Assembly (NCBI GenBank): GCA_964352985.1
Contig: CAYGUK010000005.1
Location: 125 to 64,124, forward strand
Direction of reading: 5' to 3'
DNA: 64,000 nt
Origin: an uncultured Legionellales bacterium
GTDB taxonomy: Bacteria; Pseudomonadota; Gammaproteobacteria; JAHCLG01
In this document: one piece after another, positions 20,190-64,000 of the stretch
How the letters are laid out: each line of letters starts with the position of its first letter
Numbering within the stretch: position 1 is the first letter of the stretch
Program-made: the position numbers and the translations under genes
The notes under the pieces: model-generated
Databases searched by the model: none
Told to the model about the DNA's origin: nothing
What the model saw: only the letters and a program-made list of their open reading frames with translations

Positions 20190-20198
20190 TATTATCCC

Positions 20199-21680: not shown

Positions 21681-21838
21681 TCCTTTGTCCTTTACTAGGC
21701 GATATCTAGTTTGATCCTCGTTAAATTAAACAAAATCAGTCATTATGTATTTGATAATATCATAGTAATTAACTAATATTTAAAGATGTAGATAATTTAA
21801 GCACCGAATATATTTAGATAAAATTATTAACGCCCACC

Positions 21839-21858
21839 CATAAGTACGCACACTTATG
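21839..21858. promoter_or_regulatory. Palindrome CATAAGT-ACGCAC-ACTTATG in the intergenic region upstream of the cusB-cusA-like operon. Candidate operator.
   Basis: 7-bp arms are exact inverted copies. It lies about 180 bp upstream of the cusB-like start (21680) in the minus-strand promoter region. Confidence 0.3.
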
Positions 21859-21921
21859 TTTTATACCCTACCTCTCACAGAGCAGATCCTTGAACTGTTT
21901 TGTTAAAGTAACAAATCAAAT

Positions 21922-25666: not shown

Positions 25667-25677
25667 AGTTCCTATGA

Positions 25678-26697
25678 TTAATGGGAATGCCCAGCACTAC
25701 TTTTTTCAAGCTCTGCTTTTAAAATAAAACTATTTTTTGACACGTAGCGCATTCCGCTTTTTAACCCCGCTTTTATCTGAACAAATTTATCATCACCAAC
25801 ACCCAACGTGACATGTTCTGCTTCAAAATAATTAGCTTTATTTTCGACAAATACCACTTTTTCACCATCGACCTCTTGAACAGCATCACGGGTGACCGCA
25901 ACGGGAACATTTTTAGCATCAACAACAACCGTTGCATCAACATAGAGTCCAGGGATCCATTGATTATGAGGATTAGCGAGCGAAGCTCGAGCAATGATAC
26001 TTTGGGTATGTTCATTACCAATTGGTGATATATAATGAATAACACTCTTAATCTTTTTCTTGTTTTTACCTTCGGCAGTTACATAAATCCTATCACCTTT
26101 AGCAACACGATGGGCGTCTTTTCGATAAATTGAAAGCTCAACCCAGACTGTCGATAGATCGGCTAATTCATAAATAGGTTGCTCAGGTTTCACTAATTTT
26201 CCAACATTCACATGTTGTTGGATTAATGTCCCCGCTAAAGGTGTTTTAACAGAATAGTTTTGCAAACTTTCATTACTCTCTATAACGGCAAGCACATCGC
26301 CTTTTTTAACATAGTCACCCAACTGAAAAGCAAGTGATTTTACAACACCTGTAAATCGAGGATAAATGGCGACTTGTTTATTTTGCTCAGGTACTATTTT
26401 TCCATAAACTGGTAATGTTTGTTCAATGAGTTGAGATTTTATTGTGGACACTTCGATATGATTTGATTTTAATGCATCAGGTGATAAATAAATAATGTTG
26501 TTTTCTTCAGCGTGTTCATCATGTGTATCGTCAGATTGGTTCTTATGCTCTTTAGTCGTTTCATTAGAGTGCGTTTTATGTTGTTCTTCATTTTGAAGAT
26601 GATGCTCATGATCGTTATCGTGACTTCCACTAGCAATAGCGATACCCATTGTTAGCATCAACGCAATTATAAAACTAACAACAACAGATTTGTTCAT
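25678..26697 (-). CDS. Membrane fusion protein (CzcB-like) with a His-rich N-terminal metal-binding region.
   Basis: 339 aa. A signal/TM segment is followed by 'SGSHDNDHEHHLQNEEQHKTH...HDEHAEEN', then MFP beta-barrel motifs. Confidence 0.75.
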   Translation of the reverse strand: MNKSVVVSFIIALMLTMGIAIASGSHDNDHEHHLQNEEQHKTHSNETTKEHKNQSDDTHDEHAEENNIIYLSPDALKSNHIEVSTIKSQLIEQTLPVYGKIVPEQNKQVAIYPRFTGVVKSLAFQLGDYVKKGDVLAVIESNESLQNYSVKTPLAGTLIQQHVNVGKLVKPEQPIYELADLSTVWVELSIYRKDAHRVAKGDRIYVTAEGKNKKKIKSVIHYISPIGNEHTQSIIARASLANPHNQWIPGLYVDATVVVDAKNVPVAVTRDAVQEVDGEKVVFVENKANYFEAEHVTLGVGDDKFVQIKAGLKSGMRYVSKNSFILKAELEKSSAGHSH

Positions 26698-26706
26698 ATG
26701 CTTCCC

Positions 26707-47390: not shown

Positions 47391-48509
47391 ATGAATAAAT
47401 TAGGGTATTTCTTAGAAATGTATAATGAAAAAACAACAATTCGTGATCGATCACCTTGTCAAACATTAGCGATAATAAAGCCTTATATAAAACAAGCTGG
47501 TATTACACGAATTGCCGATATAACACAATTAGATACTATCGGTCTCCCTGTTTATACGTGTATAAGGCCGTTATCACGAAGCATAAGCACATCTCAAGGA
47601 AAAGGTCTAACCAAAGAATTAGCAAAATGCAGTGCCTATATGGAAGCCATAGAGCATTACTTTGCAGAAATTGTGAAATATGATTTTTATGGTAACGAAC
47701 TAGAAAATAAAGAAAAAAAATTCATAACGCCAGCTGATTTAGAATCAAATAATTTAAAATTAAAATATGATAATTCCACCTATATCGGCTGGAAAAAAGT
47801 TACAAATTTAAAGAATCATAGTTACTGTTATGTTCCGTTAGACGCAATATCTTTAGATTTAACAGTTAATAAAAAAACATCGAGTAAAACTTCATCAACA
47901 GGATTAGCATCCGGTAATAACCTAAACGAAGCTATATATTATGGATTACTTGAGGTTATAGAAAGGATCTATACAAAAAGATTTTTTAATCTTACAAAAT
48001 CAGAAAAGTTCGATTCAATAATAGAGATCAAATCTATAACTGATGATAACTGCCATTTATTATTTAAAAAATTAAAAAATAACAATATTAAAGTGACTAT
48101 ATTTAATATAACAAACAGATTAGAAATTCCTACATTTATGTGCTTACTAGAATCTCACGATAAATATAGCAATCATTATAATTACTATGGAATAAGTTCA
48201 AATTTAAATAGTGATATCGCTTTACAGCGATCAATTGTAGAAGCAATCCAATCAAGATTAACAGGGATTGCAAGCAGTAGAGATGATATTGATTATAAAA
48301 CAACAGCTAATACATCACCAATTAGTATCAACACAACAGGAAAACCATATAACTATCAAAACACAGAATTCACTTCATTTAATGAAGCTATCAATAAGAT
48401 ATTAAATAACGATTATTTTCATAATACCGATTTCTATTATTGCGATCTATTACCTAAGAACTCAGATATTTCAGTCATTAAAATTATTTCTTCCGGGGAT
48501 ATATCATGA
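47391..48509 (+). CDS. ycaO: YcaO-domain protein (ATP-dependent amide-backbone activating enzyme; cyclodehydratase/thioamidation family).
   Basis: 'SISTSQGKGLTKELAKCSAYMEAIEHYFA' matches the YcaO ATP-binding signature (S.GKG.T...A..SA.GEAIERY). 372 aa, minimal YcaO size. Confidence 0.85.
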   Translation: MNKLGYFLEMYNEKTTIRDRSPCQTLAIIKPYIKQAGITRIADITQLDTIGLPVYTCIRPLSRSISTSQGKGLTKELAKCSAYMEAIEHYFAEIVKYDFYGNELENKEKKFITPADLESNNLKLKYDNSTYIGWKKVTNLKNHSYCYVPLDAISLDLTVNKKTSSKTSSTGLASGNNLNEAIYYGLLEVIERIYTKRFFNLTKSEKFDSIIEIKSITDDNCHLLFKKLKNNNIKVTIFNITNRLEIPTFMCLLESHDKYSNHYNYYGISSNLNSDIALQRSIVEAIQSRLTGIASSRDDIDYKTTANTSPISINTTGKPYNYQNTEFTSFNEAINKILNNDYFHNTDFYYCDLLPKNSDISVIKIISSGDIS

Positions 48510-49795
48510 ATGAAATTATTGTCTTTTGTGGTTCAACCATTAAAAGAAGTGAAGTTCTTAAAATTTTACCCTTAGCAAATTGCCTGTCACCTATAAAAAA
48601 TGGGGATATTATTAAAGCAGTACGTTTGAAGCCAAAGATTATAATAATTATAGACGGATACTTTGCGAATCACATTTCGATTTGGCATAAAGAAATTTTA
48701 TTCGCCATTTCATGTGGTATAACTGTATATGGCGCCAGTAGTATGGGAGCACTTAGAGCCTCTGAATTATCTCAATTTGGAATGATTGGCTTTGGAGAAA
48801 TATATAATTTATACGATCAAAATATCATTGATGGCGACGATGAAGTTGCCGTTTCAATATATAAGACTAATGATAATATTCATACATCAATACCTCTAAT
48901 TGACATAAGGTTCACATTAGAAAAACATCAACATTCATTCACAGAGAAAGAAGTCGATTCATTTATTAGAGATATTAAAAGTATCGGTTATCCTCTTAGA
49001 GAATGGGATTATCTTTTGACAGATAAGAATTTCACATGCTATAGGACATTAATAAACTATATAAAAGAAAACTACATTAATCAAAAATTAATCGATGCAG
49101 AAAATTTATTAAATCACGTAAAAAATAATGCTAATGTGATAATTAAACAAAACATAGATACTTCTGATATAATAACTGTATATTTTAGAAAACTGTATCG
49201 TCACTATATTAATGAACCATTTGATCATGCTTATGATTGGTTACCTAAAGAAGAAAAAATGCTTTTCGGTATTAAATCAAAGAATAAATATTATGAATAT
49301 TTTCACGGCTTGAGTATACTTATACACATATATTACGACTTAAAAAAAACAAATAAAACACCCTTGAAATTTATAAGTGAAATAAAAGAACGCGCATCAA
49401 CAACAAACACAGGAGTTGAAATAAAGTCTTCTATTAATGATTACTATAATATCGAGACGAACAAGAGCGATAGTAAACAACTAGATATTAACAATATGTT
49501 TTATTTTTTAATATTAAACATAAAAAATCTTTTAAATAATTCAGGCTATTACTTAAACGCAAATTATGTAAGTGAAATTACCTTAAAATTTAGAGTAAGT
49601 AAAAAATTATTAACTAAAAACGAATTTCAAAACTGGGTCTCATCTAAAAAATTTAATAAAAAACAAACTAAAGAGTTTTTTCTGATTTATAGTTTTGTAG
49701 AATTATTAAACAATAAAATAGACAATATTGAATTCAATATGAAATATAATAAAGTAAATTGGTTAAGGCATTTAGTTGAAACACTAAGTGATTAA
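48506..49795 (+). CDS. tfuA: TfuA-like protein with a C-terminal extension of about 200 aa.
   Basis: 'IIIIIDGYFANHISIWHKEILFAISCGITVYGASSMGALRASELSQFGMIGFGEIY...DDEVAV' matches the TfuA domain. There is a 4-bp overlap with ycaO. 429 aa, whereas ~200-260 aa is typical. Confidence 0.85.
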   Translation: MNEIIVFCGSTIKRSEVLKILPLANCLSPIKNGDIIKAVRLKPKIIIIIDGYFANHISIWHKEILFAISCGITVYGASSMGALRASELSQFGMIGFGEIYNLYDQNIIDGDDEVAVSIYKTNDNIHTSIPLIDIRFTLEKHQHSFTEKEVDSFIRDIKSIGYPLREWDYLLTDKNFTCYRTLINYIKENYINQKLIDAENLLNHVKNNANVIIKQNIDTSDIITVYFRKLYRHYINEPFDHAYDWLPKEEKMLFGIKSKNKYYEYFHGLSILIHIYYDLKKTNKTPLKFISEIKERASTTNTGVEIKSSINDYYNIETNKSDSKQLDINNMFYFLILNIKNLLNNSGYYLNANYVSEITLKFRVSKKLLTKNEFQNWVSSKKFNKKQTKEFFLIYSFVELLNNKIDNIEFNMKYNKVNWLRHLVETLSD

Positions 49796-51427: not shown

Positions 51428-52808
51428 ATCTAGATAATATTATAAATATAATTATCGAAATGCCAAATATGATATACACATACGTATAAAGTTTATAACT
51501 ATCACTTAGAATTAAACTGTTTGATAAAGTGTTTGTATGACTAAATTTTATTAGATAGTAAGCACAGACAGCTGCTACTGAAGATACAAATTGTATTAAT
51601 CCCATATAAAAACCTTGTTTACTAGAACTTTTTGCAATATCCGAAACTTGAGATTGTAAAGTTGGGAATATTAAAAATTCACCAACTGCAATGAAGCTAA
51701 TACTAATAAAAACCCAATAAACTGGTATTCTTTCACTCTCACTATATAAATAGTGAATATTTCCCAAAATAAAAAATGCAATAAATATAGCTACAAGACC
51801 AAAAACTAACATGTATGAAGTATTAAGTTCTCTTCTTGAAAATAATTTAATTATACCCGTACCAAATAACATATTAACAATCGGATCAACCATTAAGGCT
51901 ATTAGTGGTGGAAAATATATGCCAAAAATAGTTTCATTAACATGGTTATTTAAGAAAATAGAAAACTGGTTATAATATATAGCTATTGCTAACCAATATG
52001 GAAAACAACAAAGAAAAAGCAATAATGAAAATTTAAGGTATTTGCTATTTTTCGTGGAGAATGAATCTTTTAAAACAAGACAAACACAAACGATAAATAA
52101 CCCTAAGATGAAGTATCTTGTATAATCCCTAAACTGCATTAATAAGTAACAAAATAATAAGAAGAATATAATAAAACTATACTTTACAAAAACATTCCAA
52201 TTACTTGTATCATTACTATGGATATCTACAATTTTACGACTACTAAGAGATAATAAATTTAAAATTAAACATAATGTTCCAGCTATTAAAATTAAAGCAC
52301 TATGGCAATATATACCACTTATTAGAATGATTAATCCAATTAATGCTCCTAAGTTTAGCATCACCTGGTATATATTATTTGCTTGGTGTCGTTTGTTACT
52401 TTCACTGTAATGTTTATTTATGAATAAGTTTAAATTAATACAATACAAGGCCGCACCAACAATAAAGAAGGTTAATGCTATGATTACTAATTTCTTATTG
52501 AACATTGAAAATAGTGAAAAACCTAGACATGAAAGTATTACGCCAAATAACATTAACTTTTTATGGCTTCCTAGTTTCGGTGATATAACACCAAGTAATA
52601 AATTTGAAATATAAAATAATGCTGAAGCAGTTGTACTAACTGAGTAAGCGTACATTAGTGAAAAACCATTCTCTTTAAGTAGTAATGATAAGCCAACCTT
52701 AATTACAATATATCCAGCCATAAAAAGGGATTCAGCAAACATTAATCTTTTGAAGCTGTCATTATCAAAACTTAATATCAAAATGTATCCTATTTTTTTT
52801 ATTACCAC
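51393..52808 (-). CDS. Polytopic membrane transporter, MFS-like (about 12 TM).
   Basis: 471 aa, hydrophobic throughout, with roughly 12 predicted helices in two halves. No specific subfamily motif identified. Confidence 0.5.
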   Translation of the reverse strand: MVIKKIGYILILSFDNDSFKRLMFAESLFMAGYIVIKVGLSLLLKENGFSLMYAYSVSTTASALFYISNLLLGVISPKLGSHKKLMLFGVILSCLGFSLFSMFNKKLVIIALTFFIVGAALYCINLNLFINKHYSESNKRHQANNIYQVMLNLGALIGLIILISGIYCHSALILIAGTLCLILNLLSLSSRKIVDIHSNDTSNWNVFVKYSFIIFFLLFCYLLMQFRDYTRYFILGLFIVCVCLVLKDSFSTKNSKYLKFSLLLFLCCFPYWLAIAIYYNQFSIFLNNHVNETIFGIYFPPLIALMVDPIVNMLFGTGIIKLFSRRELNTSYMLVFGLVAIFIAFFILGNIHYLYSESERIPVYWVFISISFIAVGEFLIFPTLQSQVSDIAKSSSKQGFYMGLIQFVSSVAAVCAYYLIKFSHTNTLSNSLILSDSYKLYTYVYIIFGISIIIFIILSRFGWLVNNVKNK

Positions 52809-53111
52809 TTTAAATGATAAATAGTTAAAACTTAAATATTTACAGCTAGTGTGTAATAGTTAATCACCTTTATAATAGCTGCACAAATATTATCATATTC
52901 TGTTAATTGATCTATAGCTTTGTGATACAAATACTAATTTTAATTCATTTATGTAAATATTTTTTTCGCTTACCTATTGTAATTTGTTCATAATTTGAAC
53001 AACAATAAACTAACTTGTGACCATGTCAAAAATCGCTTGTTGATTCTTTGTGAAGAAATCGATATATACACAGCTAATTAAATATTAAAAAATAGTTAAA
53101 AGGAAAGAGAA

Positions 53112-54029
53112 TTGAAAAGTGTAAAAGTCATCGGTCTTGTGATGTTTTTTCTTTTGTCTACTACATCATTTTCGTGGAATTTTCGAGGCCATGTTGTCAT
53201 TGCTCAAATTGCTTATAGCCAACTTTCAACAACACAACAACAGGAACTCGATCAACTTGCAGAAAAGATCTATGAAAGATTGCCAAAAAAAGCAAAGGCG
53301 ACGATAGCAAAACAATATCCTGGAGCGAATCGTTTTGCACAGCTTGCGTTTTTACCTGACTACTGGCGACTGTGGAAAATTAAAACTTTATTTCACAAAT
53401 TCGATTCACCGATCCCGAGTGATCTCGTTTCAATCGAAAATCAGTCGACTAAATCATGGCATTTTATTAACCTAGATTTCCCGAATACTGGAAAATGCCA
53501 GATCACAAAAAAATACAATATTGAATGGGCGATCCCTGTTTTAATTAATGATATTAAACTTGCAAAGAACGAAAACGAAAAAGCATTACTTTTAATTGAG
53601 CTTTCTCATTTAGTCGGTGATGCGCATCAACCTTTGCATGGCTATTCACGTGTAACGAGTAGTTGTGAAGAAGATCAAGGTGGGAACAAAGTTTGTTTGT
53701 ATCAAAGTAGGAATGGACGTTGCTCGCTCAGCTTACATGCACTGTGGGATAGGGGAGTAGGTTATATTCGTAATACTCGTAAAATTAAGCAGCTTGCAAA
53801 AACAATTAAAATTAAATTTCCAGAGTCATCATTATCGAGTTATTTAAATAATCTAAATCCTAGTGATTGGGTAAATGAAAATTATCATTATTTAAGTTTT
53901 ATCTATTCAGCAAAATCTGAGCCTTTAACAAAACAATATAAAAAAGAAGGTAAATCAATTGCTGAGAAGCAAATGGCTATAGCTGGGTATCAATTAAGTA
54001 AAATAATTGGTAGTATATTTGGAAATTAA
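53112..54029 (+). CDS. Secreted S1/P1-family zinc-dependent nuclease.
   Basis: Signal peptide, then 'WNFRGHVVIAQIAY' (the mature N-terminal W and H are zinc ligands). 'HLVGDAHQPLH' is the S1/P1 signature. Confidence 0.75.
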   Translation: MKSVKVIGLVMFFLLSTTSFSWNFRGHVVIAQIAYSQLSTTQQQELDQLAEKIYERLPKKAKATIAKQYPGANRFAQLAFLPDYWRLWKIKTLFHKFDSPIPSDLVSIENQSTKSWHFINLDFPNTGKCQITKKYNIEWAIPVLINDIKLAKNENEKALLLIELSHLVGDAHQPLHGYSRVTSSCEEDQGGNKVCLYQSRNGRCSLSLHALWDRGVGYIRNTRKIKQLAKTIKIKFPESSLSSYLNNLNPSDWVNENYHYLSFIYSAKSEPLTKQYKKEGKSIAEKQMAIAGYQLSKIIGSIFGN

Positions 54030-54500
54030 ACATATTACTCTAGCTAATTCAAATATATTTAAAAATATTTTGAAAAAGATAGAACAAATCTTTAATTTTC
54101 TATAGGTAGTATAGAAGATGAGAAAATTCTTTTTATTTAAAGTTGAGGATCATTTCCAAATATCTAATTGGGGGCTAGTGATTTCTCCGGGAATCCCGCT
54201 CGAGCATTATGAAGGACCTAGAGATATTAGGCTTTACCTAAAGAAACCTGATTGCAAAGAAATTGAAGAAACGGCAGAGATATTCTATTCATTTCCTAAA
54301 CCTACGCCAGTAAAAAAAATGCTTACCATTTTATTTCCACACCTGAAAAAAGAAGACGTCCCTGTTGGAACTGAAGTTTGGTTTATTTCGGATAAATGAG
54401 GAATTTTGAGCCTTTAACAAAACAATATAAAAAAGAAGGTAAACCAATTGCTGAGAAGCAAGTGGCTATAACTGGGTATCAATTAAGTAAAATAGTGAGT
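53918..54500. repeat. About 95-bp imperfect direct repeat (53918-54013 and 54405-54500) duplicating the nuclease gene's 3' end around a small ORF.
   Basis: Both copies read GAGCCTTTAACAAAACAATATAAAAAAGAAGGTAAA(T/C)CAATTGCTGAGAAGCAA(A/G)TGGCTATA(G/A)CTGGGTATCAATTAAGTAAAATA. They diverge only in the last ~20 nt. Confidence 0.8.
54118..54399 (+). CDS. Small hypothetical protein located between the direct repeats.
   Basis: 93-aa ORF, no motif. Confidence 0.3.
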   Translation: MRKFFLFKVEDHFQISNWGLVISPGIPLEHYEGPRDIRLYLKKPDCKEIEETAEIFYSFPKPTPVKKMLTILFPHLKKEDVPVGTEVWFISDK

Positions 54501-54576
54501 GAATTATTGAAATAATTAATTAAATAAATGTTTAAATATTTTAGGGAAAATAAAGTCAAGGAAAGGATATAGGCGG

Positions 54577-54948
54577 GTGAAAAAGGCAATACAATTATTT
54601 TCCTTAAAAATTAAAAAACATATTTTTGTACTATATGAAGTCAATAAACATCCAAAAACACCTAAAAGTGCCAAAATAATAATAATGATTGCCCTTGGAT
54701 ATGCTTTAAGTCCTATTGATCTTATTCCAGACTTCATCCCAGTCTTAGGTTATTTAGATGATTTAATTATTTTGCCAATGTTAATTTATTTAGCTCTTAG
54801 ATTTATTCCATCTGAAATCTGGAATGATTGTGTTATAAAAGCTGAACAAAATGAAAATAAACTACCTAAAATATGGTTAGTTGGGGGACTCATAATTTTA
54901 ATTTGGGTATCAATATTAATTTATCTTTTAGTGAAAATTTTTCAATAA
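54577..54948 (+). CDS. DUF1232 (YkvA-like) membrane protein.
   Basis: 'SPIDLIPDFIPVLGYLDDLIILP' is the DUF1232 signature. It is flanked by TM segments. Confidence 0.55.
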   Translation: MKKAIQLFSLKIKKHIFVLYEVNKHPKTPKSAKIIIMIALGYALSPIDLIPDFIPVLGYLDDLIILPMLIYLALRFIPSEIWNDCVIKAEQNENKLPKIWLVGGLIILIWVSILIYLLVKIFQ

Positions 54949-55260
54949 ATAATAAGTTAATATTGTTCATTTTTGTAATCTTTCTCACACAATACTTTAA
55001 GCTTGAAAATATTTAAAATGTTGTCATTATGTGTTTAAAAGAGGATGTGACATTCTTTTAAGTGAGATTGATAATCTTGCCTACAATATTTTATATTATC
55101 AATCTCGCTTTTTTTATTAGCTAACGAGAACAAACACATTGCGATTACTAATACGTAGAGAACAAAATGAAAAGAATTACCTAATATAGGGATGTTTGAG
55201 GTACTAATAGTTTTAATTTTGGTATCAATATTAATTTCTTTAATGCATCGAGTAAATTGA

Positions 55261-55677
55261 ATGAATGAATTAAAGTTTACAATAAAATCTAACCCTAGTT
55301 CGGAAGAACAGAGGGTTATTCGTGATGGCATCATAGAATTTAACCAATCAATCATTAGTGATAAACCAAGTTGCTTTAATATCTTTGTTAAAGATAATGA
55401 AAATGTTATAGGTGGTGCAATTGTTTATCAGCATAAGGATGCACTATATATCGATGTTTTATGGTGCATGGAAAGATATAGATTTAAAGGGATCGGCTCT
55501 AAACTTATTGCAATGATTGAAAACGAAGCAAATAATAAATCTATCAAAAAACTATTTGTTGATACATTTGCTTTTCAAGCGGAGGAATTTTATAAGAAAC
55601 ACGGCTTCTCGATCATAGGTATTATTCCGGAGTATTTGCTTGATCATGATAGAATTTTTATGAGGAAAGATCTTTAA
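55261..55677 (+). CDS. GNAT-family N-acetyltransferase.
   Basis: 138 aa. 'RYRFKGIGSKLIAMIENEA' is the acetyl-CoA-binding motif A region (R/Q-x-x-G-x-G/A). 'KHGF' is at the C-terminus. Confidence 0.65.
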   Translation: MNELKFTIKSNPSSEEQRVIRDGIIEFNQSIISDKPSCFNIFVKDNENVIGGAIVYQHKDALYIDVLWCMERYRFKGIGSKLIAMIENEANNKSIKKLFVDTFAFQAEEFYKKHGFSIIGIIPEYLLDHDRIFMRKDL

Positions 55678-55910
55678 ATGGTCTTCTGACATAAAAGTTG
55701 GCCATATTTTTAAAAAAATCAGGCTATGTCTTGCTTAGTTGGGCGAGAAACGCAAAACACAACTTGAGTTGCATTGACCACTTGAGCTATCGCATAATAT
55801 GATATATTATTACCAATAAGCTTTCTTATCGGAACCTAGATCCTAAGCGTTCAGAACGTTCAAGTCGTGGTAATTTAACCACGTAAATCAACTATTGATG
55901 GAGAACGTTC

Positions 55911-56984
55911 ATGAAGGTTCAACAAGTGAGAAATTATCACGGTTTAACGCTTTGGATAGTTATTGATGATAGCTATTTGCCCGTAGCACCTATTACAGAG
56001 TTTATAATCTATCTTGCCAATACTGAGAAATCACCATTTACCATTCGATCTTATGCGAACCATTTAAAGCTATTCTGGGATTATGTAGTAAGCAATAAGA
56101 TTAATTGGCAAACAATTAAGTTAAATCAATTAGCAAGCTTTATAGCGTATCTCAGACGCCATAATGTTGATGATACGGTTATTGATATTACACAAAAAGC
56201 TGATAGGAAAATATCGACTGTGAACACGATTTCATCGTGTGTATGTAGTTTTTACCAATATCATAATCAAGTTGGTCACACTTCAATAGATTTCACAGAA
56301 TCCACATTTTATAGTGGTAGTCGTTATAAAGGCTTGTTGCATCATCTTTATCGAGGAAAACCGACGCGTAAAAAAATATTAACCTTAAAAAATGTTAAAG
56401 AAGCACCAAAAACAATTACAACAGAGCAATTTAATAAACTAATAAATAATTGTTGTAATAAACGTGATATTTTCCTTGTGACATTATTATTTGAAACAGG
56501 ATTAAGAATTGGTCAAGCATTAGCTTTAAGACATGAAGATATCGTTAGCTGGGATAATATTATTAATATTAAGTATCGTTATGATAATTTAAATAACGTT
56601 AGAAACAAATCTAAAAGACAAAATATTATCCATGTATCAAATAGTTTGTTAAACGCCTATACAGATTATGTGATTTCATTAGAGCAAAGCAAAATTGGTG
56701 AATATGTTTTTATTAACTTAAATGATTATACGCCTTTACGATATTCAGCTGTTAGAAAGCTATTTTCAAGATTCACTAAACAATGTGGTTTCAAGGTAAC
56801 ACCACATATGCTTCGACACAGTCATGCTACACAACTAATTGAGGCTGGCTGGGATAGCTCATTAATACAAAAGAGACTTGGCCATTCAAGTGTTCAAACA
56901 ACCATTAATACATATGCGCATATTGATAACAAAACTTTAAAACAAGCCTACAAAGAATATCAAAATAGCAAGGAGGTAAAATAA
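55911..56984 (+). CDS. Tyrosine recombinase (TnpA-like, Tn554 family).
   Basis: 'HMLRHSHATQLIEAGWDSSLIQKRLGHSSVQTTINTYAHI'. 357 aa. Confidence 0.8.
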   Translation: MKVQQVRNYHGLTLWIVIDDSYLPVAPITEFIIYLANTEKSPFTIRSYANHLKLFWDYVVSNKINWQTIKLNQLASFIAYLRRHNVDDTVIDITQKADRKISTVNTISSCVCSFYQYHNQVGHTSIDFTESTFYSGSRYKGLLHHLYRGKPTRKKILTLKNVKEAPKTITTEQFNKLINNCCNKRDIFLVTLLFETGLRIGQALALRHEDIVSWDNIINIKYRYDNLNNVRNKSKRQNIIHVSNSLLNAYTDYVISLEQSKIGEYVFINLNDYTPLRYSAVRKLFSRFTKQCGFKVTPHMLRHSHATQLIEAGWDSSLIQKRLGHSSVQTTINTYAHIDNKTLKQAYKEYQNSKEVK

Positions 56985-58396
56985 TGACTATTCAAACAAC
57001 AAAGCTAAAATCATTAAGTATTTCTTTTAATGATAAACAGGAAAAACTATTGAATAAAAATAGATGGCATGTAAGTGATATTAATTTAGCTGCTGATAAG
57101 ACTCATAGCACATATTACTTAGACTTTAATAAAATAAGCATTGATTGGTTAAGACAATGCGCTAAAAAGTTCGTGATATTTCAATCTGTGACAAAATCTT
57201 TAGCATCATGCAAAGCGTATATCACGTCCCTATTCCATTTTAATAGTTATTTACTAACATTAGATATCATTATTAAACAAGAAAATGTTAATAGACAACT
57301 GATTGTGGGATATATTGAATATCTTTCCGCATCTAAACTTGGTGTTGTGGCCAAACAAATAGCGCTTATTAATTTACGAACATTTCACCAAGTTGTATTA
57401 CAAGAAGAGTGGTTAAGTTGGCCAGAGAGGCCACTAATCTATTCCAGTGATCTACCAAAAAATATTAATAATTACCCAAGATTTATACCGGAAACTGTAA
57501 TCAAACAGTTATTGAAACATATTGTTAATTTACCAGAATATCTCCAAGCAATAGTTATTGTCTTATTGGAAACTGGTCGAAGAGTCAGTGAAGTAGTTGC
57601 CCTACCCGTTGATTGCTTAGAGCAAGATTCTGATAAAGATTGGTTATTAAAAGTTTATGAAAGAAAAATGAAACGTAAACGATTATTACCTATCTCTGCT
57701 GAATGTTTAAAAGTGATAAAAAATCAACAAAAGAATATTAATAAACAAAGTGATTCGACTTATTTATTTCCATCTCGCCGTAAAGATTCTAGTAGTTCAC
57801 ATATTACCGCTAGATACATCAATATGGTATTAAATAAATTATCAGATAAATACAATATTGTTGATGATAATGAAAAACGTTGGCAATTTTCATCTCATCA
57901 GTTTCGCCATACTGTAGGAACGAGAATGATCAACTCTGGTGTTAGTCAATTTGTTGTTCAGAAGTATCTAGGTCATGAATCACCAGAAATGACAGCAAAA
58001 TATGCTTATATCCATGATGAAACAATGAAGAAAGCATATTTTGATTTTAAGAAAAATATGATTGATATTAATGGTGAGATAGTCAGAAATGATAAGTCAA
58101 TGCTTGATGTTCAGTGGTTAAAAAAGAACATCACTACACAAGCGCTGCCTAACGGATTATGTGGCTTGCCACTAACACAAAATAAATGTCCTCATGCTAA
58201 TGCTTGCCTAACATGTTCTAATTTTAGAACAAGCAAGCAATATATTAATCAACATAAAAATCAACTTAAAGAAACTGAAATAATTATTGAAAATGCCAAT
58301 AAAAATGGTTGGACAAGAATAGTTGAAATGAATACTACTGTCAAAGAGAACTTAACTAATATAATTGAAACTCTTGAGGAGCAAGAGAATGAATAA
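56984..58396 (+). CDS. Tyrosine recombinase (TnpB-like, Tn554 family).
   Basis: 'FRHTVGTRMINSGVSQFVVQKYLGHESPEMTAKYAYI'. 470 aa. Its start overlaps the stop of the upstream recombinase gene. Confidence 0.8.
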   Translation: MTIQTTKLKSLSISFNDKQEKLLNKNRWHVSDINLAADKTHSTYYLDFNKISIDWLRQCAKKFVIFQSVTKSLASCKAYITSLFHFNSYLLTLDIIIKQENVNRQLIVGYIEYLSASKLGVVAKQIALINLRTFHQVVLQEEWLSWPERPLIYSSDLPKNINNYPRFIPETVIKQLLKHIVNLPEYLQAIVIVLLETGRRVSEVVALPVDCLEQDSDKDWLLKVYERKMKRKRLLPISAECLKVIKNQQKNINKQSDSTYLFPSRRKDSSSSHITARYINMVLNKLSDKYNIVDDNEKRWQFSSHQFRHTVGTRMINSGVSQFVVQKYLGHESPEMTAKYAYIHDETMKKAYFDFKKNMIDINGEIVRNDKSMLDVQWLKKNITTQALPNGLCGLPLTQNKCPHANACLTCSNFRTSKQYINQHKNQLKETEIIIENANKNGWTRIVEMNTTVKENLTNIIETLEEQENE

Positions 58397-58778
58397 TGAT
58401 AAAATTAATTCAAGGCAAATTAATGCACTAAAGAAAGCGACAGCCAATAGAAAAGCAGATATTTTTGTGCGTGTTAATGAAGCATTAAAATTAATGAAAC
58501 AAGATGAAATCCCTATATCATTCCAATCTGTCGCTAAATATGCAAATGTATCCAAAACAACACTATATGCGAGATCAGAGTTAAAATCTCTAGTTGAGCA
58601 AGAACGAAACAATAATGAAAATATTAATCGCTTACACGAAAAAGATAAAGTAATCCTTCGACAAAAAAAAGAAATATCTGTTTTGACTAAACGTGTTGGT
58701 TATTTACAAACAGAGTTATCTGAACTTAAACAGCAGTTAGAGGTGATTTATGGTAAGTATTTGACTAATATCAAATAA
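58365..58778 (+). CDS. Small HTH/coiled-coil protein (TnpC-like accessory protein).
   Basis: 137 aa. HTH 'ISFQSVAKYANVSKTTLYA', then a coiled coil. It overlaps the 3' end of the second recombinase gene. Confidence 0.5.
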   Translation: MKLLRSKRMNNDKINSRQINALKKATANRKADIFVRVNEALKLMKQDEIPISFQSVAKYANVSKTTLYARSELKSLVEQERNNNENINRLHEKDKVILRQKKEISVLTKRVGYLQTELSELKQQLEVIYGKYLTNIK

Positions 58779-58844
58779 ATACAAAAGATTATACCACCTT
58801 ATAGAGTATTTGTAGTTTACAATAATATTTACTAAGCTAAGAAT

Positions 58845-59087
58845 GTGAGGCTGGTGTCTTCTCGGTATGGTTTAACATGTTTGCAGTTGATGATGATGCA
58901 ACATTTTGCTGTGTCGATTCTGTGGGATTTAACCCACACCTTTTATGGAGTACTCAACATGAGTAAATACTATAAACGTGGAAGAGACTCTCGAACTGGC
59001 AGATTCATAACTGTCAAAGAAGCAGAACGTCGTAAAGCTACGACAACTGTAGAAAGAGTTCCTCGAAGTAAGAAGAAATCTAAATAA
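58845..59087 (+). CDS. Small basic hypothetical protein.
   Basis: 80-aa ORF. The C-terminal half is Lys/Arg-rich. Confidence 0.2.
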   Translation: MRLVSSRYGLTCLQLMMMQHFAVSILWDLTHTFYGVLNMSKYYKRGRDSRTGRFITVKEAERRKATTTVERVPRSKKKSK

Positions 59088-59472
59088 TATTTAGGTTTTA
59101 ATACCAGCTTCACTTTAATTCTGGGTTAGCCACAGTAAATAATTTGAAAATTAAATTACCCGAATAAATTCTTAAATAGCTACCAGAAGTCTCAATTTTA
59201 TCAATAGCGCAAGTTTTACATTTATTTTTCGACTCACAAACCATAATTTTTTTTTCTTATTGGTATGATAGCAATTGTATAATTACGAATTAATTTATTA
59301 CAGCCATCAAGATGGCAATGGAAATAACTTATTCCCTTAAAAACCAATGGGCTTTTGCCATCATATATGTGCAATTTAGCAGCAATAATATTTGAACTAA
59401 TAAAATAATAAGATTAAAAAAAATATTCTATTGGTTAACATTAAAGTTTTTCCCTAAATAAAAAAATAATTT

Positions 59473-59865
59473 TCAAAAACTAGAATTATCAAATGCTCTT
59501 GCAACACATCTATTTCTTACCAAAAATACTTTCTTAATAAGGGTTTTAATCTCCTTATCTTTTTCTTTCCTAATCATTTCATTTTTATCTTTAAGTATAA
59601 TATACACATAAGATTCGAATGTTAGAACGTGAGGCAGCTCATCTCTAAGACAAGAACAAAATATTACATTTCCAACGGCTTTTAAACAGCCATAGTATCG
59701 TTTGATATCGATATTCTTGGAGATCGCTTTATATTGCTCCGCTGCTGCTAATCCTTGCTCAATCTGCTGTGATTGTTCAATAGACTTAAAATCATGGTTG
59801 GTCGCATGTACCAAAGTAAATACAAACATACTAACTAATATAATACATGAAAATTTAATATGCAT
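59473..59865 (-). CDS. Secreted hypothetical protein.
   Basis: Signal peptide 'MHIKFSCIILVSMFVFTLVHA'. 130 aa, several Cys. Confidence 0.3.
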   Translation of the reverse strand: MHIKFSCIILVSMFVFTLVHATNHDFKSIEQSQQIEQGLAAAEQYKAISKNIDIKRYYGCLKAVGNVIFCSCLRDELPHVLTFESYVYIILKDKNEMIRKEKDKEIKTLIKKVFLVRNRCVARAFDNSSF

Positions 59866-59974
59866 TGCCTGCTCCTCTGACGCTTATTAATTAGTATAAA
59901 ATAAATTTGATTTATTAAAAGTTATCACTCGCTCGAACAATGACATTTTGGACACTATAAGAAATATAAAAATA

Positions 59975-60574
59975 CTAAAAAATATCTTCCGAAATTTTAC
60001 CCAATCGCACCGGATTATCTTCCACGTATTTCGCGGTCATCGTAATTGAGCGATGTCCCATTAATGTTGAGACCGCTTTGATATCAACGCCCTTCTCGAT
60101 TAAGCGTGTTGCAAATGTGCGTCGCCCGGAATGAGAGCTTGCCCCTTTAATACCTGCCAGTTGATATAAATGATACAACAATTGTTGTATCGAGTTTGGT
60201 GAAAATCGCCCTGCTTTTTGTGATAAAAATAATGGCCGCTCTGGATGGTAAGGAAAATCGTGTTTTGGTTTTGTTTCTTCTATGTAAGTAGCTAAGGCTT
60301 TTCGTAACTTGGAATTAGTGAGATAAAGAAAGCGAGCACTCTCCCCTTTTACTTGCAAGCTATTCATAAACGCTTGGTCATAGATTTTTTGTTGTACACA
60401 ATCAAAAACATCACCCAGGTTGAGCAATGCCAGTTCTTTTGCGCGTAATCCCAACCCAAAAGAAAAATACAGTATTGTGATATTACGGTTTGCGTGTTGC
60501 CCAGATTGCGCAACACGCAAAAGTCGTTTAAATTCATCGTCGGTTAATACTTTCGCTTTCCCTTGCTTGGCCAT
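59975..60574 (-). CDS. Short tyrosine recombinase (catalytic domain only; FimB/ResD-like size).
   Basis: 'LRAKELALL' (box I Arg), 'SSHSGRRTFATRLIEKGVDIKAVSTLMGHRSITMTAKY' (H-x-x-R ... H ... Y). 199 aa. Confidence 0.7.
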   Translation of the reverse strand: MAKQGKAKVLTDDEFKRLLRVAQSGQHANRNITILYFSFGLGLRAKELALLNLGDVFDCVQQKIYDQAFMNSLQVKGESARFLYLTNSKLRKALATYIEETKPKHDFPYHPERPLFLSQKAGRFSPNSIQQLLYHLYQLAGIKGASSHSGRRTFATRLIEKGVDIKAVSTLMGHRSITMTAKYVEDNPVRLGKISEDIF

Positions 60575-60607
60575 TTATCCTCCAGTTTATTAACTAACTC
60601 AATTTAA

Positions 60608-60841
60608 CTATTTCTTGCCTGGAGTAAGCTGAGTACTTGTGCCTTCTTCCTGAACATGACGAATAACAGCGGATGCATTAGGAGCAACTCTAAATTCTCC
60701 ATCTGCTATATTTGCTGGTACAGACAAATCACCTGATGTAATCATAGCATTATTCACCCGTAGTAATTCGGCTTTAGTGTAAGTAAATTTTCCACCGTGT
60801 TGTTGCTTACCTATTTTTAATTTATCTGCATCATGAGGCAT
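60608..60841 (-). CDS. Small hypothetical protein upstream of and co-oriented with the short recombinase.
   Basis: 77-aa ORF. Confidence 0.3.
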   Translation of the reverse strand: MPHDADKLKIGKQQHGGKFTYTKAELLRVNNAMITSGDLSVPANIADGEFRVAPNASAVIRHVQEEGTSTQLTPGKK

Positions 60842-61053
60842 TATGTATCTTTTCCTTTTAAAATTGTAAGAAAGTCATGTTAAAAAAATATTGGGTAAAT
60901 AATCACCAAAATTAAACATTGGCGATTAAAACTAAGTTACTGCACATTTTAAGGATATAACAGCAGAATAGGTTAAAAATACCATAAAACAATAGTATTA
61001 ACATATTAATTTTTAAGCTTCGTTTTTACCTGTCTAAGAGGCCGCATAAACAC

Positions 61054-61091
61054 TGATAATCTGTTAAAAGTATACTTTTAACAGATTATCA
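61054..61091. repeat. Perfect 38-bp palindrome (19-bp arms, no spacer): TGATAATCTGTTAAAAGTA|TACTTTTAACAGATTATCA.
   Basis: Exact reverse-complement symmetry read directly from the sequence. It lies about 105 bp upstream of the coiled-coil gene and about 480 bp from the short recombinase. Confidence 0.85.
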
Positions 61092-61196
61092 ATTTCAGGC
61101 TAAACCCTTGCTTTGTATTAATGGCAAAACGCGGTAAAATAATCAAGACCGAGAAATCAAGGCTGATTATTCCAATAACTGCGAGGTATTTTTTGT

Positions 61197-61781
61197 ATGG
61201 CTAAAAACAGGGAAATAGTAATTAACCGCTATGAAGAGAATCAGAAAGCAAAAGGCATCGTCGTATTTAAGCTTAGACTACATGAAAAATACCGAGACAG
61301 ATTTCGTAACATTGCAGAACAAAAAGAAATTGAGCTTAGAGAAGATCTAAACGTAGATCTCCGTACAGTAGAAGCTTTAGCAAATCGATTAACACTTGAG
61401 GAAATGATGGATCATGATTGGCAAAAGTTTACTCAACTAAAGAATATTATAGAGGAAAAAAGCATTGCATTGGCTAAATCCCTCCCCTACTATATTAAAG
61501 AATCGCCTGATCAAGATACCAATATTCCTGAGCCCATTAAACAATTACCAGATGATCCTTTTGAGCTAAAGCGACGACTAGCATTGAGTGAAAAAGCACG
61601 AATTGATGCACATAATGAAATCCAACAATTAAAAGAAAAATGCAAAAATTTAAAAAACAAACTGAAAAATATAGAAAGGGTCTATCAGCAACAAATTGAA
61701 ATAAATGATGCACAAGAAAATACGATTAAAAATTTAACAGCAATATTAAATGATTATGATTTACCTTACGACTTAATCTAA
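61197..61781 (+). CDS. Coiled-coil protein, possibly a KfrA-like DNA-binding/plasmid-maintenance protein.
   Basis: 194 aa, rich in heptad-type E/K/L repeats. Positional association with the par region. The assignment is weak. Confidence 0.3.
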   Translation: MAKNREIVINRYEENQKAKGIVVFKLRLHEKYRDRFRNIAEQKEIELREDLNVDLRTVEALANRLTLEEMMDHDWQKFTQLKNIIEEKSIALAKSLPYYIKESPDQDTNIPEPIKQLPDDPFELKRRLALSEKARIDAHNEIQQLKEKCKNLKNKLKNIERVYQQQIEINDAQENTIKNLTAILNDYDLPYDLI

Positions 61782-61870
61782 TGCCTACATGCTCAAATAT
61801 TAAATTTATAAATTAGATCCTGAAAAATGTTGGTAGCCATTTAAACATATCCAAAATATTAAGAATTTAA

Positions 61871-62648
61871 ACGGTAAACAATTATTGTTTAGGAACAACT
61901 TTTGAATAAAAAAAACGGTAAACAAGCAAATAAGGAAAAAGATCATATGGCACAATAAACGGTAAACAGAGGAAACTTTCAGCTTAACAACGGTAAACAA
62001 ACGGTAAACAATACAAGCAATAACTATTTAGTTAACTTAAACTACTTTCTAAAATAAGGATATTAACTACATAAAACGGTAAACAACATCGCGTCAAATA
62101 ATAATTATTATACAATTAGTTAGACATCTACGGTAAACAATAAAAAACTGTTCGCAGATGAACAGATAATTAAAAGGAAAGCACAAAATGAGCCCCTATT
62201 TAATGGTAAACAAACGGTAAACATTAATCATAACGAGATACGTAAACGGTAAACAAATATATAAAGGATAAAATTTTTAATCATTTAAAACGGTAAACAA
62301 ATTTATTTTACAGGGCGTCTGCTTAAACATTGAACGGTAAACAATAGAGTTTAAACGGTAAACAATCGGTGAACAAACGGTAAATATTTCAGTAAATATT
62401 AATATTATAAATTCAATATCTTAAATAATAACGGTAATCAAACGGTAAACAATGTACAATTTCTAAATTTTGTAAATTTAATTACACCTTTTAACGGTAA
62501 ACAAAGCGGTATCACAACGATAAACAAACGGTAAACAAATTGGTAACATTTAATAATTTTATTACTTTGATTTAATGTATTATTTAAGTTAACGGTAAAC
62601 AAGCGGTAAACAAAGTGGTATCACAACTAGTATCAGAAGTGGTAACAA
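61871..62648. repeat. Iteron array: at least 20 copies of an 11-bp ACGGTAAACAA motif and close variants (GCGGTAAACAA, AATGGTAAACAA, GTGGTATCACAA) over about 780 bp, with irregular spacing, upstream of parA.
   Basis: Copies start at 61871, 61915, 61959, 61990, 62001, 62076, 62130, 62202, 62214, 62246, 62290, 62334, 62355, 62366, 62377, 62431, 62442, 62494, 62518, 62528, 62592, 62603, 62614 and 62638. Confidence 0.85.
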
Positions 62649-62738
62649 TTGATGCTAATAGTAGTATTTATTAATAAATTTAAAATAATACTATTAATTT
62701 AAAATGAGATAATGATTTAAATATTTTAAACTTAATGT

Positions 62739-62766
62739 TTGACATAGTTTAAGTTTTTAGTAAAAT
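62739..62766 (+). promoter_or_regulatory. Putative sigma70 promoter of parA (TTGACA-16-TAAAAT), embedded in an AAACTTAA / TTAAGTTT inverted repeat.
   Basis: TTGACA at 62739-62744, TAAAAT at 62761-62766. Flanking AAACTTAA (62728-62735) and TTAAGTTT (62748-62755) form a dyad across the -35. Confidence 0.4.
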
Positions 62767-62802
62767 TTAAGAAAATCTTAAACTTACTGTGGAAACGGAT
62801 TT

Positions 62803-63849
62803 ATGAAATCTTCTAATTATGGAAATTTGAATACCCAACCCAAAATAGCAATTGCAAATGTAGCAGACTTTCTAGGTGTAACCACTCAAGCTGTGCATAA
62901 ACAATTAAAAGACCGTAATATCGTCTGTCCAAGAATGGGAAATAAATTATTTATTAATTTTGAAATCGCAAGAAAATTACTAGGGATTAATTTTCACAAG
63001 AAGAAAATAGTAGGGCAGATTGTTAAGGGTGGTACAGGTAAAACTACAGCGATTGATAATATTTCTAGTTGTGCTAATTCATATGGCGCACGTGTATTAA
63101 AAATAGATGCTGATCCTCAAGGAAATTTAACTGACGCAAATGGAGTTGATGCAGAAGAATTACCAGTGCTCATTGACGCCATTAAAAATGATGTAACTAT
63201 AAGCGAGTGTATTGTTAATCTTGCGCCTGGAATGGATTTGATCCCAAGTAGAATAGAAAATGTAATTTTAGATAATGAAATTGTTAATAAAAGATTACCG
63301 TTGGATAAGCTATATTCAAATCTTTTACATGAAATTGAAGATAATTACGATTTTATTTTTATTGATTGTCCTCCAACTATGGGACAGGCTGTTACAGCTG
63401 CAAGTCTATATGCAGATATAATACTAGCACCTTTGAATCCTGATCAGTTTAGTGCAAAAGGTCTTAAAATACTTAGGAATGAAATTAAGACATTGAATGA
63501 CAATTTTTTTAAGGATAAAGCTAAGAAAATTGAATATAAGATTTTTCTTAACAAATTTAGTGGTAAAACATTGCTTTCTGATAAAGCTCTTTATTCCTTA
63601 CTTAGCGATCCCGATTTGGATAATAGATTACTGCCAAATACAATACAGTATACCCAGGAGATCCCAAATATTACTGATGAAAGTAAAAACCTTTTTTCAG
63701 TATTAAAGAAATCAGTAGTTCGTGATGACTTTGATCAAATAACTAAAAGTTTACTCGATATCGAACCTGTAAAATTATCTAAAAAGGATAATAATACTGT
63801 CAGCATAAAGAATAGTTTTGAAGTCCAAGAAGAGGTTGCTAGCGCATAA
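62803..63849 (+). CDS. parA: ParA/SopA-family partition ATPase with an N-terminal HTH (type Ia-like).
   Basis: Deviant Walker A 'KGGTGKTT'. N-terminal 'VADFLGVTTQAVHKQLK' HTH. 'FIDCPPT' (Walker B region). 348 aa. Confidence 0.85.
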   Translation: MKSSNYGNLNTQPKIAIANVADFLGVTTQAVHKQLKDRNIVCPRMGNKLFINFEIARKLLGINFHKKKIVGQIVKGGTGKTTAIDNISSCANSYGARVLKIDADPQGNLTDANGVDAEELPVLIDAIKNDVTISECIVNLAPGMDLIPSRIENVILDNEIVNKRLPLDKLYSNLLHEIEDNYDFIFIDCPPTMGQAVTAASLYADIILAPLNPDQFSAKGLKILRNEIKTLNDNFFKDKAKKIEYKIFLNKFSGKTLLSDKALYSLLSDPDLDNRLLPNTIQYTQEIPNITDESKNLFSVLKKSVVRDDFDQITKSLLDIEPVKLSKKDNNTVSIKNSFEVQEEVASA

Positions 63850-63850
63850 G

Positions 63851-64000
63851 GAGTGGCAACATGCCAAAATTGGAAGAATTAATGGCTAGTCGGAGTAAAA
63901 AATTTGTAAAAAAAACATATCGTCCATGGGATTTAAGTGGTGAAAACAATGTTGATGCTGAACGTCTTCCTGAAAGTGAAACATCTAAATCTAAAAAAAC
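63851..64000 (+). CDS. 5' portion of the gene downstream of parA, probably parB. It runs off the window.
   Basis: ATG at 63851, two nt after the parA stop. Only about 50 codons are visible, so no motif can be confirmed. Confidence 0.3.

Follow-up and report, generated by a model that had tools for sequence, protein, structure and literature searches.

Work on Tn554-type transposons has dealt almost exclusively with the macrolide, phenicol and oxazolidinone resistance that they carry in staphylococci and enterococci. Reports of Tn554-related elements concern Staphylococcus and Enterococcus (PMC10214605) as well as Actinobacteria (Van Houdt et al. 2012, PMC3414803), and the simple tyrosine recombinases have been listed with a 'TnpA' subgroup in which Tn554 TnpA is placed (PMC8138268). 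According to a 2023 survey, the host range and the transposition route of Tn554-type transposons are still unsettled (PMC10214605). Here we describe a locus from an uncultured Legionellales bacterium in which three co-oriented genes encode two tyrosine recombinases and a small third protein. All positions refer to the 64,000-nucleotide stretch of contig CAYGUK010000005.1 that we analyzed, called the window, which is nearly all of the 64,159-bp contig. A first-pass annotation of the window had likened the three genes to tnpA-tnpB-tnpC of Tn554. We conclude that the locus very probably holds a small, almost cargo-free, site-specific transposon of the Tn554 superfamily, which sits in a short palindrome on a conjugative-looking plasmid.

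We compared the three proteins with those of a genuine Tn554 (locus L094 of our set, from Jeotgalicoccus). This copy is inserted in radC, encodes proteins of 361, 630 and 125 aa, and carries ANT(9) and Erm(A) after them. The window TnpA matches Tn554 TnpA over its full length (357/361 aa) with 40% identity (E=7e-89), and the R..HxxR..H..Y residues are aligned. TnpB is 39% identical over 455 aa to residues 183-628 of Tn554 TnpB (E=4e-101), in an alignment that takes in CPHANACL..C..F.TSK. TnpC shows 33% identity over 80 aa to Tn554 TnpC in BLASTP (E=3e-9) and 31-44% identity to the TnpC proteins of other relatives, which carry DUF6262. Judging from these alignments, the trio is a true homologue of Tn554 tnpA-tnpB-tnpC, and the architecture proposed in the first-pass annotation is borne out. 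The Tn554 interpretation is thus supported by direct protein comparison, by synteny and by the architecture of the ends. A tblastn search of plasmids with TnpB found a 54% identical trio on the Legionella sainthelensi plasmid pLA01-117_113k, matches of 38-46% in staphylococcal/enterococcal-type elements, where the adjoining small gene is annotated 'DUF6262 family protein', and weak matches (22-32%) to plasmids of Rhodococcus, Streptomyces and Mycobacterium. The elements matched at 38-46% include a Tn558 remnant with fexA (pSAM12-0145) and an lnu(G) element on a Providencia plasmid. 'DUF6262 family protein' is also the PGAP label for TnpC of Tn558- and Tn6260-type elements.

The open reading frame (ORF) listing confirms three overlapping, co-oriented genes on the + strand, as had been claimed, with tnpA and tnpB sharing 1 nt (TAATG). 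One correction concerns tnpC, whose ORF was listed from a TTG (58365-58778). We consider ATG 58389 (129 aa) the most likely start rather than TTG 58365, because GAGGAG sits 7 nt upstream of this ATG, because the gene from there overlaps the tnpB stop by 8 nt, and because tnpC of the relatives has the same size (123-130 aa) and likewise overlaps tnpB. In Pfam, Phage_integrase is found in both large proteins (E=1e-32 and 2e-30), and Phage_int_SAM_1 in TnpA only. Both recombinases have the catalytic R, HxxR, H and Y, and R199, H305/R308, H331 and Y340 of TnpB are invariant in an alignment of 24 TnpB homologues. TnpC appears to consist of a helix-turn-helix-like N-terminal half and a coiled-coil-like C-terminal half, a fold read from its sequence. 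As a separate observation, TnpB has a Cys/His cluster C-terminal to the catalytic tyrosine (residues 393-424, including H424), which is conserved from the Legionella-type elements through Tn554 TnpB. Its residues C393, C402-P-H404, C408 and C411 are invariant in the same 24 homologues, and the cluster is probably a zinc-binding module.

We investigated the distribution of these genes. A protein search with TnpB gave 1,447 homologues at E<=1e-20, many of them encoded on contigs of 3.0-3.2 kb. Among the 1,447, the best 118 have 409-485 aa and 44-57% identity; their sources are L. pneumophila, L. feeleii, L. qingyii, Fluoribacter gormanii and numerous metagenomes. When one genome per species and the JGI metagenomes were scanned, we obtained a set of 160 loci (~80 from genomes and ~80 from metagenomes), which we cite by numbers with the prefix L. 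The hosts are Legionella, Berkiella, Acinetobacter, Idiomarina, other Gammaproteobacteria, many Cyanobacteria, Acidobacteriota, Chloroflexota, Clostridium and staphylococci. The A-B-C order recurs in nearly all of the ~160 loci in which the contig is long enough, and therefore is not a chance arrangement. The TnpB proteins fall into length classes of ~463, 530, 610-640 and >=750 aa. Every relative at least 45% identical to the window TnpB belongs to the short class (~457-485 aa), indicating that the window TnpB is not a truncated copy. By this comparison, the clade with a short TnpB (~465 aa, without the ~180 N-terminal residues of Tn554 TnpB) is large and resides in Legionella and uncultured Gammaproteobacteria. 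Our literature search found nothing on such elements in Legionella or on the short TnpB form. The earlier statement that the family is mainly known from Firmicutes holds for the literature (PMC10214605) but not for the sequence databases, where it is common in Gammaproteobacteria, Cyanobacteria, Acidobacteriota and Chloroflexota. Likewise, the term 'Legionella-type element' suits the transposon, whose nearest relatives are in Legionella, but not demonstrably the replicon backbone, which has no close relative in PLSDB.

The relatives also reveal the ends of the element. L011 and L012 are 100% identical, starting sharply 100 bp upstream of tnpA, with different left flanks and the same right flank; both are short-read metagenome contigs and possibly mis-joined across the repeat, and we do not rely on them alone. 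An independent flank pair is given by L029 from a Berkiella metagenome-assembled genome (MAG), which is 99.5% identical to L011 over 3,906 bp and has unrelated flanks. L021 and L022 are two copies within one MAG, L028, L035 and L046 are three copies of a ~3.0-3.2 kb element (~3.04 kb in L035), and Calothrix L041/L042 are identical or near-identical copies in different flanks. At least 15 loci have as their left junction a palindrome whose halves are separated by a 6-bp spacer and which lies ~100 bp ahead of the tnpA ATG, for example GGTCTGATTA-N6-TAATCAGACC, GGCCGGTAA-N6-TTACCGGCC or CCAGTAA-N6-TTATCGG. The spacer differs among copies that are 99.5-100% identical (TTTTGC in L011, CTCCTA in L012 and TTCCTA in L029). 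All mapped left ends are ~90-100 bp from the tnpA ATG on its upstream side, and those elements that have cargo carry it downstream of tnpC. The right junction always comprises an R arm ending in TTTAA or TTAA, 6 bp, and a half-site that pairs with the left outer arm; about 12 such junctions were mapped, the half-site of L046 being weaker. No target duplication was seen at the mapped junctions. Within the ~2 Mb of fetched loci, palindromes of the target type occur almost only at element junctions. The L024 locus has two successive right junctions, indicating that accretion occurs in this family. In the L106 and L026 (3.1 kb) contigs, the L arm is repeated in the last bases after the R arm and 6 bp, which may be a hint of the circular form through which transposition in the Tn554 family proceeds, with all three proteins required.

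Two further observations concern single relatives. A 5.4-kb relative in L. pneumophila (L004 3818-9233) and in an uncultured gammaproteobacterial MAG (L021 8767-14190) is 94% identical between the two hosts, which points to recent horizontal spread, and its cargo consists of PIN_12 and PemK-toxin genes. In L035 (8870-8935 and 11947-12010), the DNA on the right side is the reverse complement of the left flank together with the first 25 nt of the copy, which may reflect either an inverted duplication or faulty assembly of this long-read MAG.

An empty site was found for the L. pneumophila relative. Strains without the trio carry TTAAGTCTGATTA-TTTCGA-TAATCAGACTTAT exactly at the start of the right flank of the occupied strain. 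This site (L191 reverse complement, 6930-6961) is a palindrome with 13-bp arms between convergent genes. Thus, both halves of the target pre-exist in L. pneumophila. The first-pass annotation had proposed a comparison with related genomes; for the window element itself, none of the sequences compared provided an empty site.

We then mapped the same features onto the window copy. Its left junction (55811-55836) reads TACCAATAA-GCTTTC-TTATCGGAACC. The distance from the L arm to tnpA is as in L028, L035 and L027, and the relatives have their outer arm at the position equivalent to 55811-55819. The site CCRRTAA-N6-TTAYYGG has a single mismatch-free occurrence in the 64-kb window, and a Logan contig from a sister sample (L019) stops at 55810. 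Inside the L arm, tandem 9-bp repeats AAGCGTTCA and GAACGTTCA (55845-55862) are followed by the palindrome CGTGGT-AATTTA-ACCACG (55866-55883) and by a third repeat, GAACGTTCA, at 55903-55911, which overlaps the tnpA ATG. This layout is conserved at the nucleotide level in L106, and analogous 9-bp repeats are found in L001, L011 and L028. The subterminal repeats are predicted to be accessory binding or operator sites.

On the right, TTCTCGGTATGGTTTAA-CATGTT (58859-58881) resembles the right ends of L106 (TTCTGGGTTCGTTTAA-CATATA) and L028/L035 (GCTGTTAA-CATGTA). The motif KTTAACATRT, taken from the relatives, occurs once in the window, at this site, which is also the best + strand local match of the L106 right end in the window. 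Local alignment and a motif search provided this match; a MAFFT alignment of the right-end regions left the window site unaligned. The spacer is followed by TGCAGTTGAT and not by an L-arm-like half-site. A pairing half-site is found farther on, since CTTATTGGTA at 59256-59265 is the sole perfect inverted copy of TACCAATAAG (55811-55820) in the window. Only 0.57% of the window 10-mers have an inverted partner 2.9-4.6 kb downstream (empirical frequency 0.006). The spacers at the two junctions, GCTTTC and TTTTTC, are not a duplication, and the right junction is uncertain. The 375-bp segment between the canonical right end and this half-site encodes a short ORF with no Pfam or PHROG match. The DNA at 58779-59975 has no nucleotide relative in any fetched locus, and the 375-bp segment has no protein relative there either.

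Two other right-end candidates were rejected. The sequence at 58816-58831 (TTTACAATAA-TATTTA) agrees with the left outer arm at 8/10 positions but is unlike any mapped right arm. The sequence at 60968-61003 (ATAGGTTAAAAATACCA...TATTAACATATT) is L028-like (16/17, then TTAACAT) and may be a relic end, but equal scores against the window are reached with shuffled queries.

The best explanation for these features is as follows. The inserted DNA would extend from ~55826 to 59250 (3.43 kb) and comprise the left end, tnpA, tnpB, tnpC, the canonical right end and the 375 bp; the complete minimal element would be 3,050 bp long, ending at 58875. The insertion target would be the palindrome TACCAATAA-N6-TTATTGGTA between two convergent genes. 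By analogy, the two Xer-like tyrosine recombinases TnpA and TnpB would recognize dif-like sites, each built of two arms around a 6-bp spacer, with strand exchange across that spacer, and TnpC may serve as an accessory or directionality factor. Excision would join the right and left ends in a circular intermediate, which would then integrate into another palindrome, so that neither a target duplication nor long terminal inverted repeats would result. The outer left arm and the right half-site would both be target DNA, and conservative site-specific recombination is the best-supported route. The simplest account of the extra 375 bp is that flank DNA was captured earlier via a pseudo-end downstream of the true right end. 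From the outer boundaries, the empty site is predicted to read ...ATTATTACCAATAA-N6-TTATTGGTATGATAGC... (target form TACCAATAAGCTTTCTTATTGGTA), and the circle junction is predicted to be GGTATGGTTTAA-N6-TTATCGGAACC or CAAACCATAATTTT-N6-TTATCGGAACC, depending on the right end used. The window copy, whose catalytic residues are all intact, may still be mobile.

Table 1. Features of the transposon locus in the 64,000-nucleotide window
Feature	Position	Strand	Remarks
Left half of the proposed target palindrome (X arm, TACCAATAA)	55811..55819	.	Putative plasmid DNA, outside the element
Left spacer GCTTTC, presumed crossover region	55820..55825	.	6-bp spacer variable in relatives
Left end, L arm TTATCGGAACC	55826..55836	+	Same as the L106 L arm
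Left subterminal region	55845..55911	+	9-bp repeats and small palindrome
tnpA	55911..56984	+	357-aa tyrosine recombinase; Pfam Phage_integrase and Phage_int_SAM_1
tnpB	56984..58396	+	470-aa tyrosine recombinase, Cys/His-rich C-terminal extension, short form
tnpC	58389..58778	+	129-aa accessory protein (137 aa from TTG 58365)
Canonical right end: R arm TTCTCGGTATGGTTTAA 58859-58875 and spacer CATGTT 58876-58881	58859..58881	+	
375-bp segment (to 59256 with spacer)	58882..59250	+	42-aa Lys/Arg-rich ORF at 58959-59087
Right junction: spacer TTTTTC 59251-59256 and right palindrome half TTATTGGTA 59257-59265	59251..59265	.	

Several points weigh against this explanation. A gap of 375 bp separates the canonical right end (58875) from the palindrome half (59257), AACCATAATTTT, just to the left of 59251, is poor as an R arm, and the capture scenario is a reconstruction. 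The statistics of the right-end match are modest, as 21/500 shuffles score as high (p ~0.04). The searches revealed neither an empty site nor a second copy of the window element, and its ends rest on rules from relatives that are at most 57% identical. The exact left-flank 29-mer has no match in the JGI metagenomes, and exact look-ups of the GNAT and 130-aa flank proteins gave nothing but short, occupied contigs of this sample or a sister sample. The match of TnpC to Pfam DUF6262 is weak and below the cut-off (E=4e-5, 24.1 bits vs 29). The activity of the window copy is conjectural. In L. pneumophila, an R-arm-like ATAGTACC lies ~25 nt to the right of the empty palindrome (L004 9209-9273), and the homology between L004 and L021 extends ~40 nt beyond the half-site. 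This 'empty' palindrome (type TTAAGTCTGATTA-N6-TAATCAGACTTAA) might be the relic of an earlier miniature element.

The nearest alternative keeps the minimal, cargo-free element (55826-58875, 3,050 bp) and treats the 375 bp as plasmid DNA, the 10-mer at 59256-59265 being coincidental or displaced by a rearrangement. The R arm and spacer at 58859-58881 fit the family consensus and are unique in the window, and 3.05 kb is the commonest size among the relatives (~3.04 kb in L035, 3.1 kb in L026 and 3.0-3.2 kb in many contigs). We nevertheless find it rather doubtful, given that the spacer lacks the following half-site, unlike the ~12 mapped right junctions except the weaker L046, and that the left outer arm has a perfect 10-nt inverted partner at 59256 (p ~0.006). 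It could also be argued that the outer arm and the right half-site belong to the mobile unit as its perfect terminal inverted repeats, in which case insertion sites would be arbitrary. This is unlikely. The tnpABC-free L. pneumophila locus carries a complete palindrome at the insertion point, the outer halves of the window and L035 pair perfectly yet differ from the L arm of the element, both flanks of Tn554 are host radC codons, and there is no target duplication outside the arms. Such repeats would, on the other hand, agree with the homology of independent insertions, which starts at the outer arm and ends at or just past the right half-site (L011/L029 and L004/L021), with the co-variation of the arms and the element's own L arm across sub-groups (GGTCTGATTA/TAATCAGACC and GGCCGGTAA/TTACCGGCC), and with the occurrence of the palindromes almost only beside elements in ~300 kb of Legionellales loci.

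The neighbouring genes bring in the question of a larger island, in which the trio would mobilise an upstream S1/P1 nuclease gene (53112-54029), a DUF1232 gene (54577-54948) and a GNAT gene (55261-55677), all assigned by Pfam, and/or a downstream gene for a secreted protein (130 aa with an N-terminal hydrophobic stretch, 59473-59865, - strand). The first-pass annotation had suggested these as passenger genes, which does not agree with the mapped ends. The left junction (55811-55836) precedes tnpA by 90 bp, the spacing seen in all mapped relatives, so that the nuclease, DUF1232 and GNAT genes are outside the element, and the gene of the 130-aa protein is outside because the right palindrome half is at 59257-59265; all four thus lie beyond the palindrome halves at 55811-59265. 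None of the flank genes or proteins recurs beside any other trio among the fetched loci, and Tn554 and all relatives carry cargo only downstream of tnpC. In favour of an island, the surroundings are mosaic and rich in AT, 3' ends of genes are directly repeated upstream, and a borderline L028-type right-end-like sequence lies at 60968-61003, but this match is within the shuffle range. A larger island is thus highly improbable. The same low probability applies to an immobile recombinase module domesticated by the plasmid (for multimer resolution, an inversion switch or replicon integration) or to a phage-type integrase/excisionase pair. The recombinases score best against the NCBIfam Xer models and the generic phage integrase phrog_1, and other tyrosine recombinases exist on the replicon. 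However, the scores are far below the Xer equivalog cut-offs (139 bits vs 220 for XerA; ~110 vs ~330, or 335, for XerC/XerD), and close relatives are multi-copy and in different flanks. The first-pass annotation had asked whether the proteins would cluster with phage integrase-excisionase systems, which the searches do not bear out: TnpC has no match in PHROG, the recombinases match only the generic integrases phrog_1/216, and a full-length TnpB-like match is present in only 2 of 50,697 phage records. These two, OR846930.1 and OR848267.1, are 9-kb 'Listeria phage' records with a TnpB homologue (36% identity, 94% coverage) and are more likely Tn554-type transposons than phages. A site-specific transposon in a palindromic target thus remains our preferred explanation.

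We also investigated the replicon. It is present in samples ERR3534985 and ERR3534981, is ~64 kb in size and looks like a conjugative plasmid, with a P-type conjugation system (VirB4, B6, B9, B10, B11 and VirD4), a UvrD-like helicase, ParA with iterons, and two further tyrosine recombinases. Megablast of 28000-52000 and 52000-64000 against PLSDB gave no near-identical DNA. The VirD4-type coupling protein (31557-33491, - strand) shows ~25% identity at most across 72,556 plasmids, and its best match is on a plasmid of the amoeba symbiont Candidatus Paracaedimonas acanthamoebae. The absence of a PLSDB relative and this low identity suggest that the host belongs to an under-sampled AT-rich lineage. 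Upstream of the transposon, direct repeats are found at 53913-54005/54402-54494 (93 nt, 95%) and 54855-54922/55170-55237 (68 nt, 81%). A second copy of the nuclease gene's 3' end follows a 93-aa ORF, and one of the DUF1232 gene's 3' end precedes the GNAT gene. These repeats look like cassette-like insertions copying the end of the preceding gene. Downstream, a gene at 59975-60574 (- strand) encodes a stand-alone 199-aa tyrosine recombinase with only a catalytic domain, followed by a perfect palindrome with 19-nt arms (61054-61091), GGTAAACA-type iterons (62200-62640) and the ParA gene (62803-63849). The stretch 59975-63849 is probably a plasmid maintenance region. A Tn3-family transposase (DDE_Tnp_Tn3, E=1e-118) beside an AcrB-type RND pump (10292-13357 and 17079-26700, both - strand) would represent a second, unrelated transposon on the same replicon. 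Another tyrosine recombinase (411 aa) is encoded at 7433-8668, and a YcaO cyclodehydratase and TfuA pair at 47391-49795 adjoins the conjugation genes.

The three-protein machinery is widespread, occurring in Legionella, other Gammaproteobacteria, Cyanobacteria, Acidobacteriota and Chloroflexota. The present locus extends the family into Legionella-like bacteria and, with its relatives, shows that a stripped-down ~3 kb form with a shorter TnpB exists. This clade appears to target a simple palindrome, of which both occupied and empty states are legible in genomes, and it may offer a compact natural system for studying the roles of each recombinase and of the absent TnpB N-terminus. Current annotation hides such elements under the labels 'tyrosine-type recombinase/integrase' and 'DUF6262', and the nuclease, GNAT and secreted-protein neighbours at the window locus should not be taken for transposon cargo. 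More tentatively, and with considerable doubt, the Legionellales-type elements might form a distinct, undescribed class of IS-like mobile DNA with a Xer-like tyrosine recombinase pair, homing to perfect dif-like palindromes between convergent genes and growing by downstream pseudo-ends. The target palindromes would possibly be terminator hairpins or relics of earlier copies. If so, these elements would be vehicles for toxin-antitoxin genes and small cargo among Legionella chromosomes and the plasmids of intracellular bacteria.

Among described systems, the closest is the group of Tn554, Tn558, Tn559, Tn6260, Tn6674 and Tn553 from Staphylococcus and Enterococcus, which has homologous TnpA, TnpB and TnpC in the same order, with overlapping genes and a similar left end. 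Both this group and the relatives mapped here show a 6-bp junction varying between copies, no target duplication, no long terminal inverted repeats, a left end ~90-135 bp upstream of tnpA, and cargo downstream of tnpC. The right arm of Tn554 ends in ..TAA followed by 6 bp (CTCTTGATAA-GACCTA) and its left end is 6 bp-TTAACCATAG, a geometry as in the relatives studied here. The left end lies ~135 bp upstream of tnpA in Tn554 and 85-100 bp upstream in the window and at least 15 relatives. TnpB has 630 aa in Tn554 and 470 aa in the window, where the first ~180 residues are absent. The target of Tn554 is att554 in the radC coding sequence, with radC codons on both flanks (L094/L096), whereas it is an intergenic palindrome in the window, between the GNAT gene and the 130-aa ORF, and in the L. 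pneumophila relative. Moreover, the window element has no resistance cargo, belongs to a Gram-negative, AT-rich host lineage, and shares only 33-40% protein identity with Tn554.

The actinobacterial Tn554-related elements (PMC3414803), which we compared mostly by description, likewise pair an ordinary tyrosine recombinase in tandem with an unusual one, often accompanied by a third, TnpC-like gene, and occur as identical copies on chromosomes and plasmids. Their unusual recombinase is abnormally long (611-828 aa), whereas the second recombinase of the window is shortened. The window trio is not a RIT element, as this would need three adjacent recombinases and the third protein has no Phage_integrase domain in Pfam. 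SE / GInt elements also combine two RHRY tyrosine recombinases with a small coiled-coil accessory protein, a 6-bp footprint logic, target specificity and Gammaproteobacterial hosts. They differ in a fourth core gene (tfp/ginC, a catalytically dead recombinase fold) between the recombinases; in the window, no gene lies between tnpA and tnpB, which overlap. The gamma-mobile-trio recombinase model gave only weak matches in the NCBIfam scan. Xer/dif systems and IMEX elements share the dif-like core sites (arms of ~8-13 bp ending in ..TAA, a 6-bp spacer, then TTA..) and the use of Xer-like 'simple' tyrosine recombinases. Unlike these, the window element brings its own recombinase pair, its sites are not chromosomal dif, and its Xer scores are well under the cut-offs. 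The machinery itself is of a known type, and the locus departs from classical Tn554 in its short TnpB, in its palindromic intergenic target, in carrying almost no cargo and in its host.

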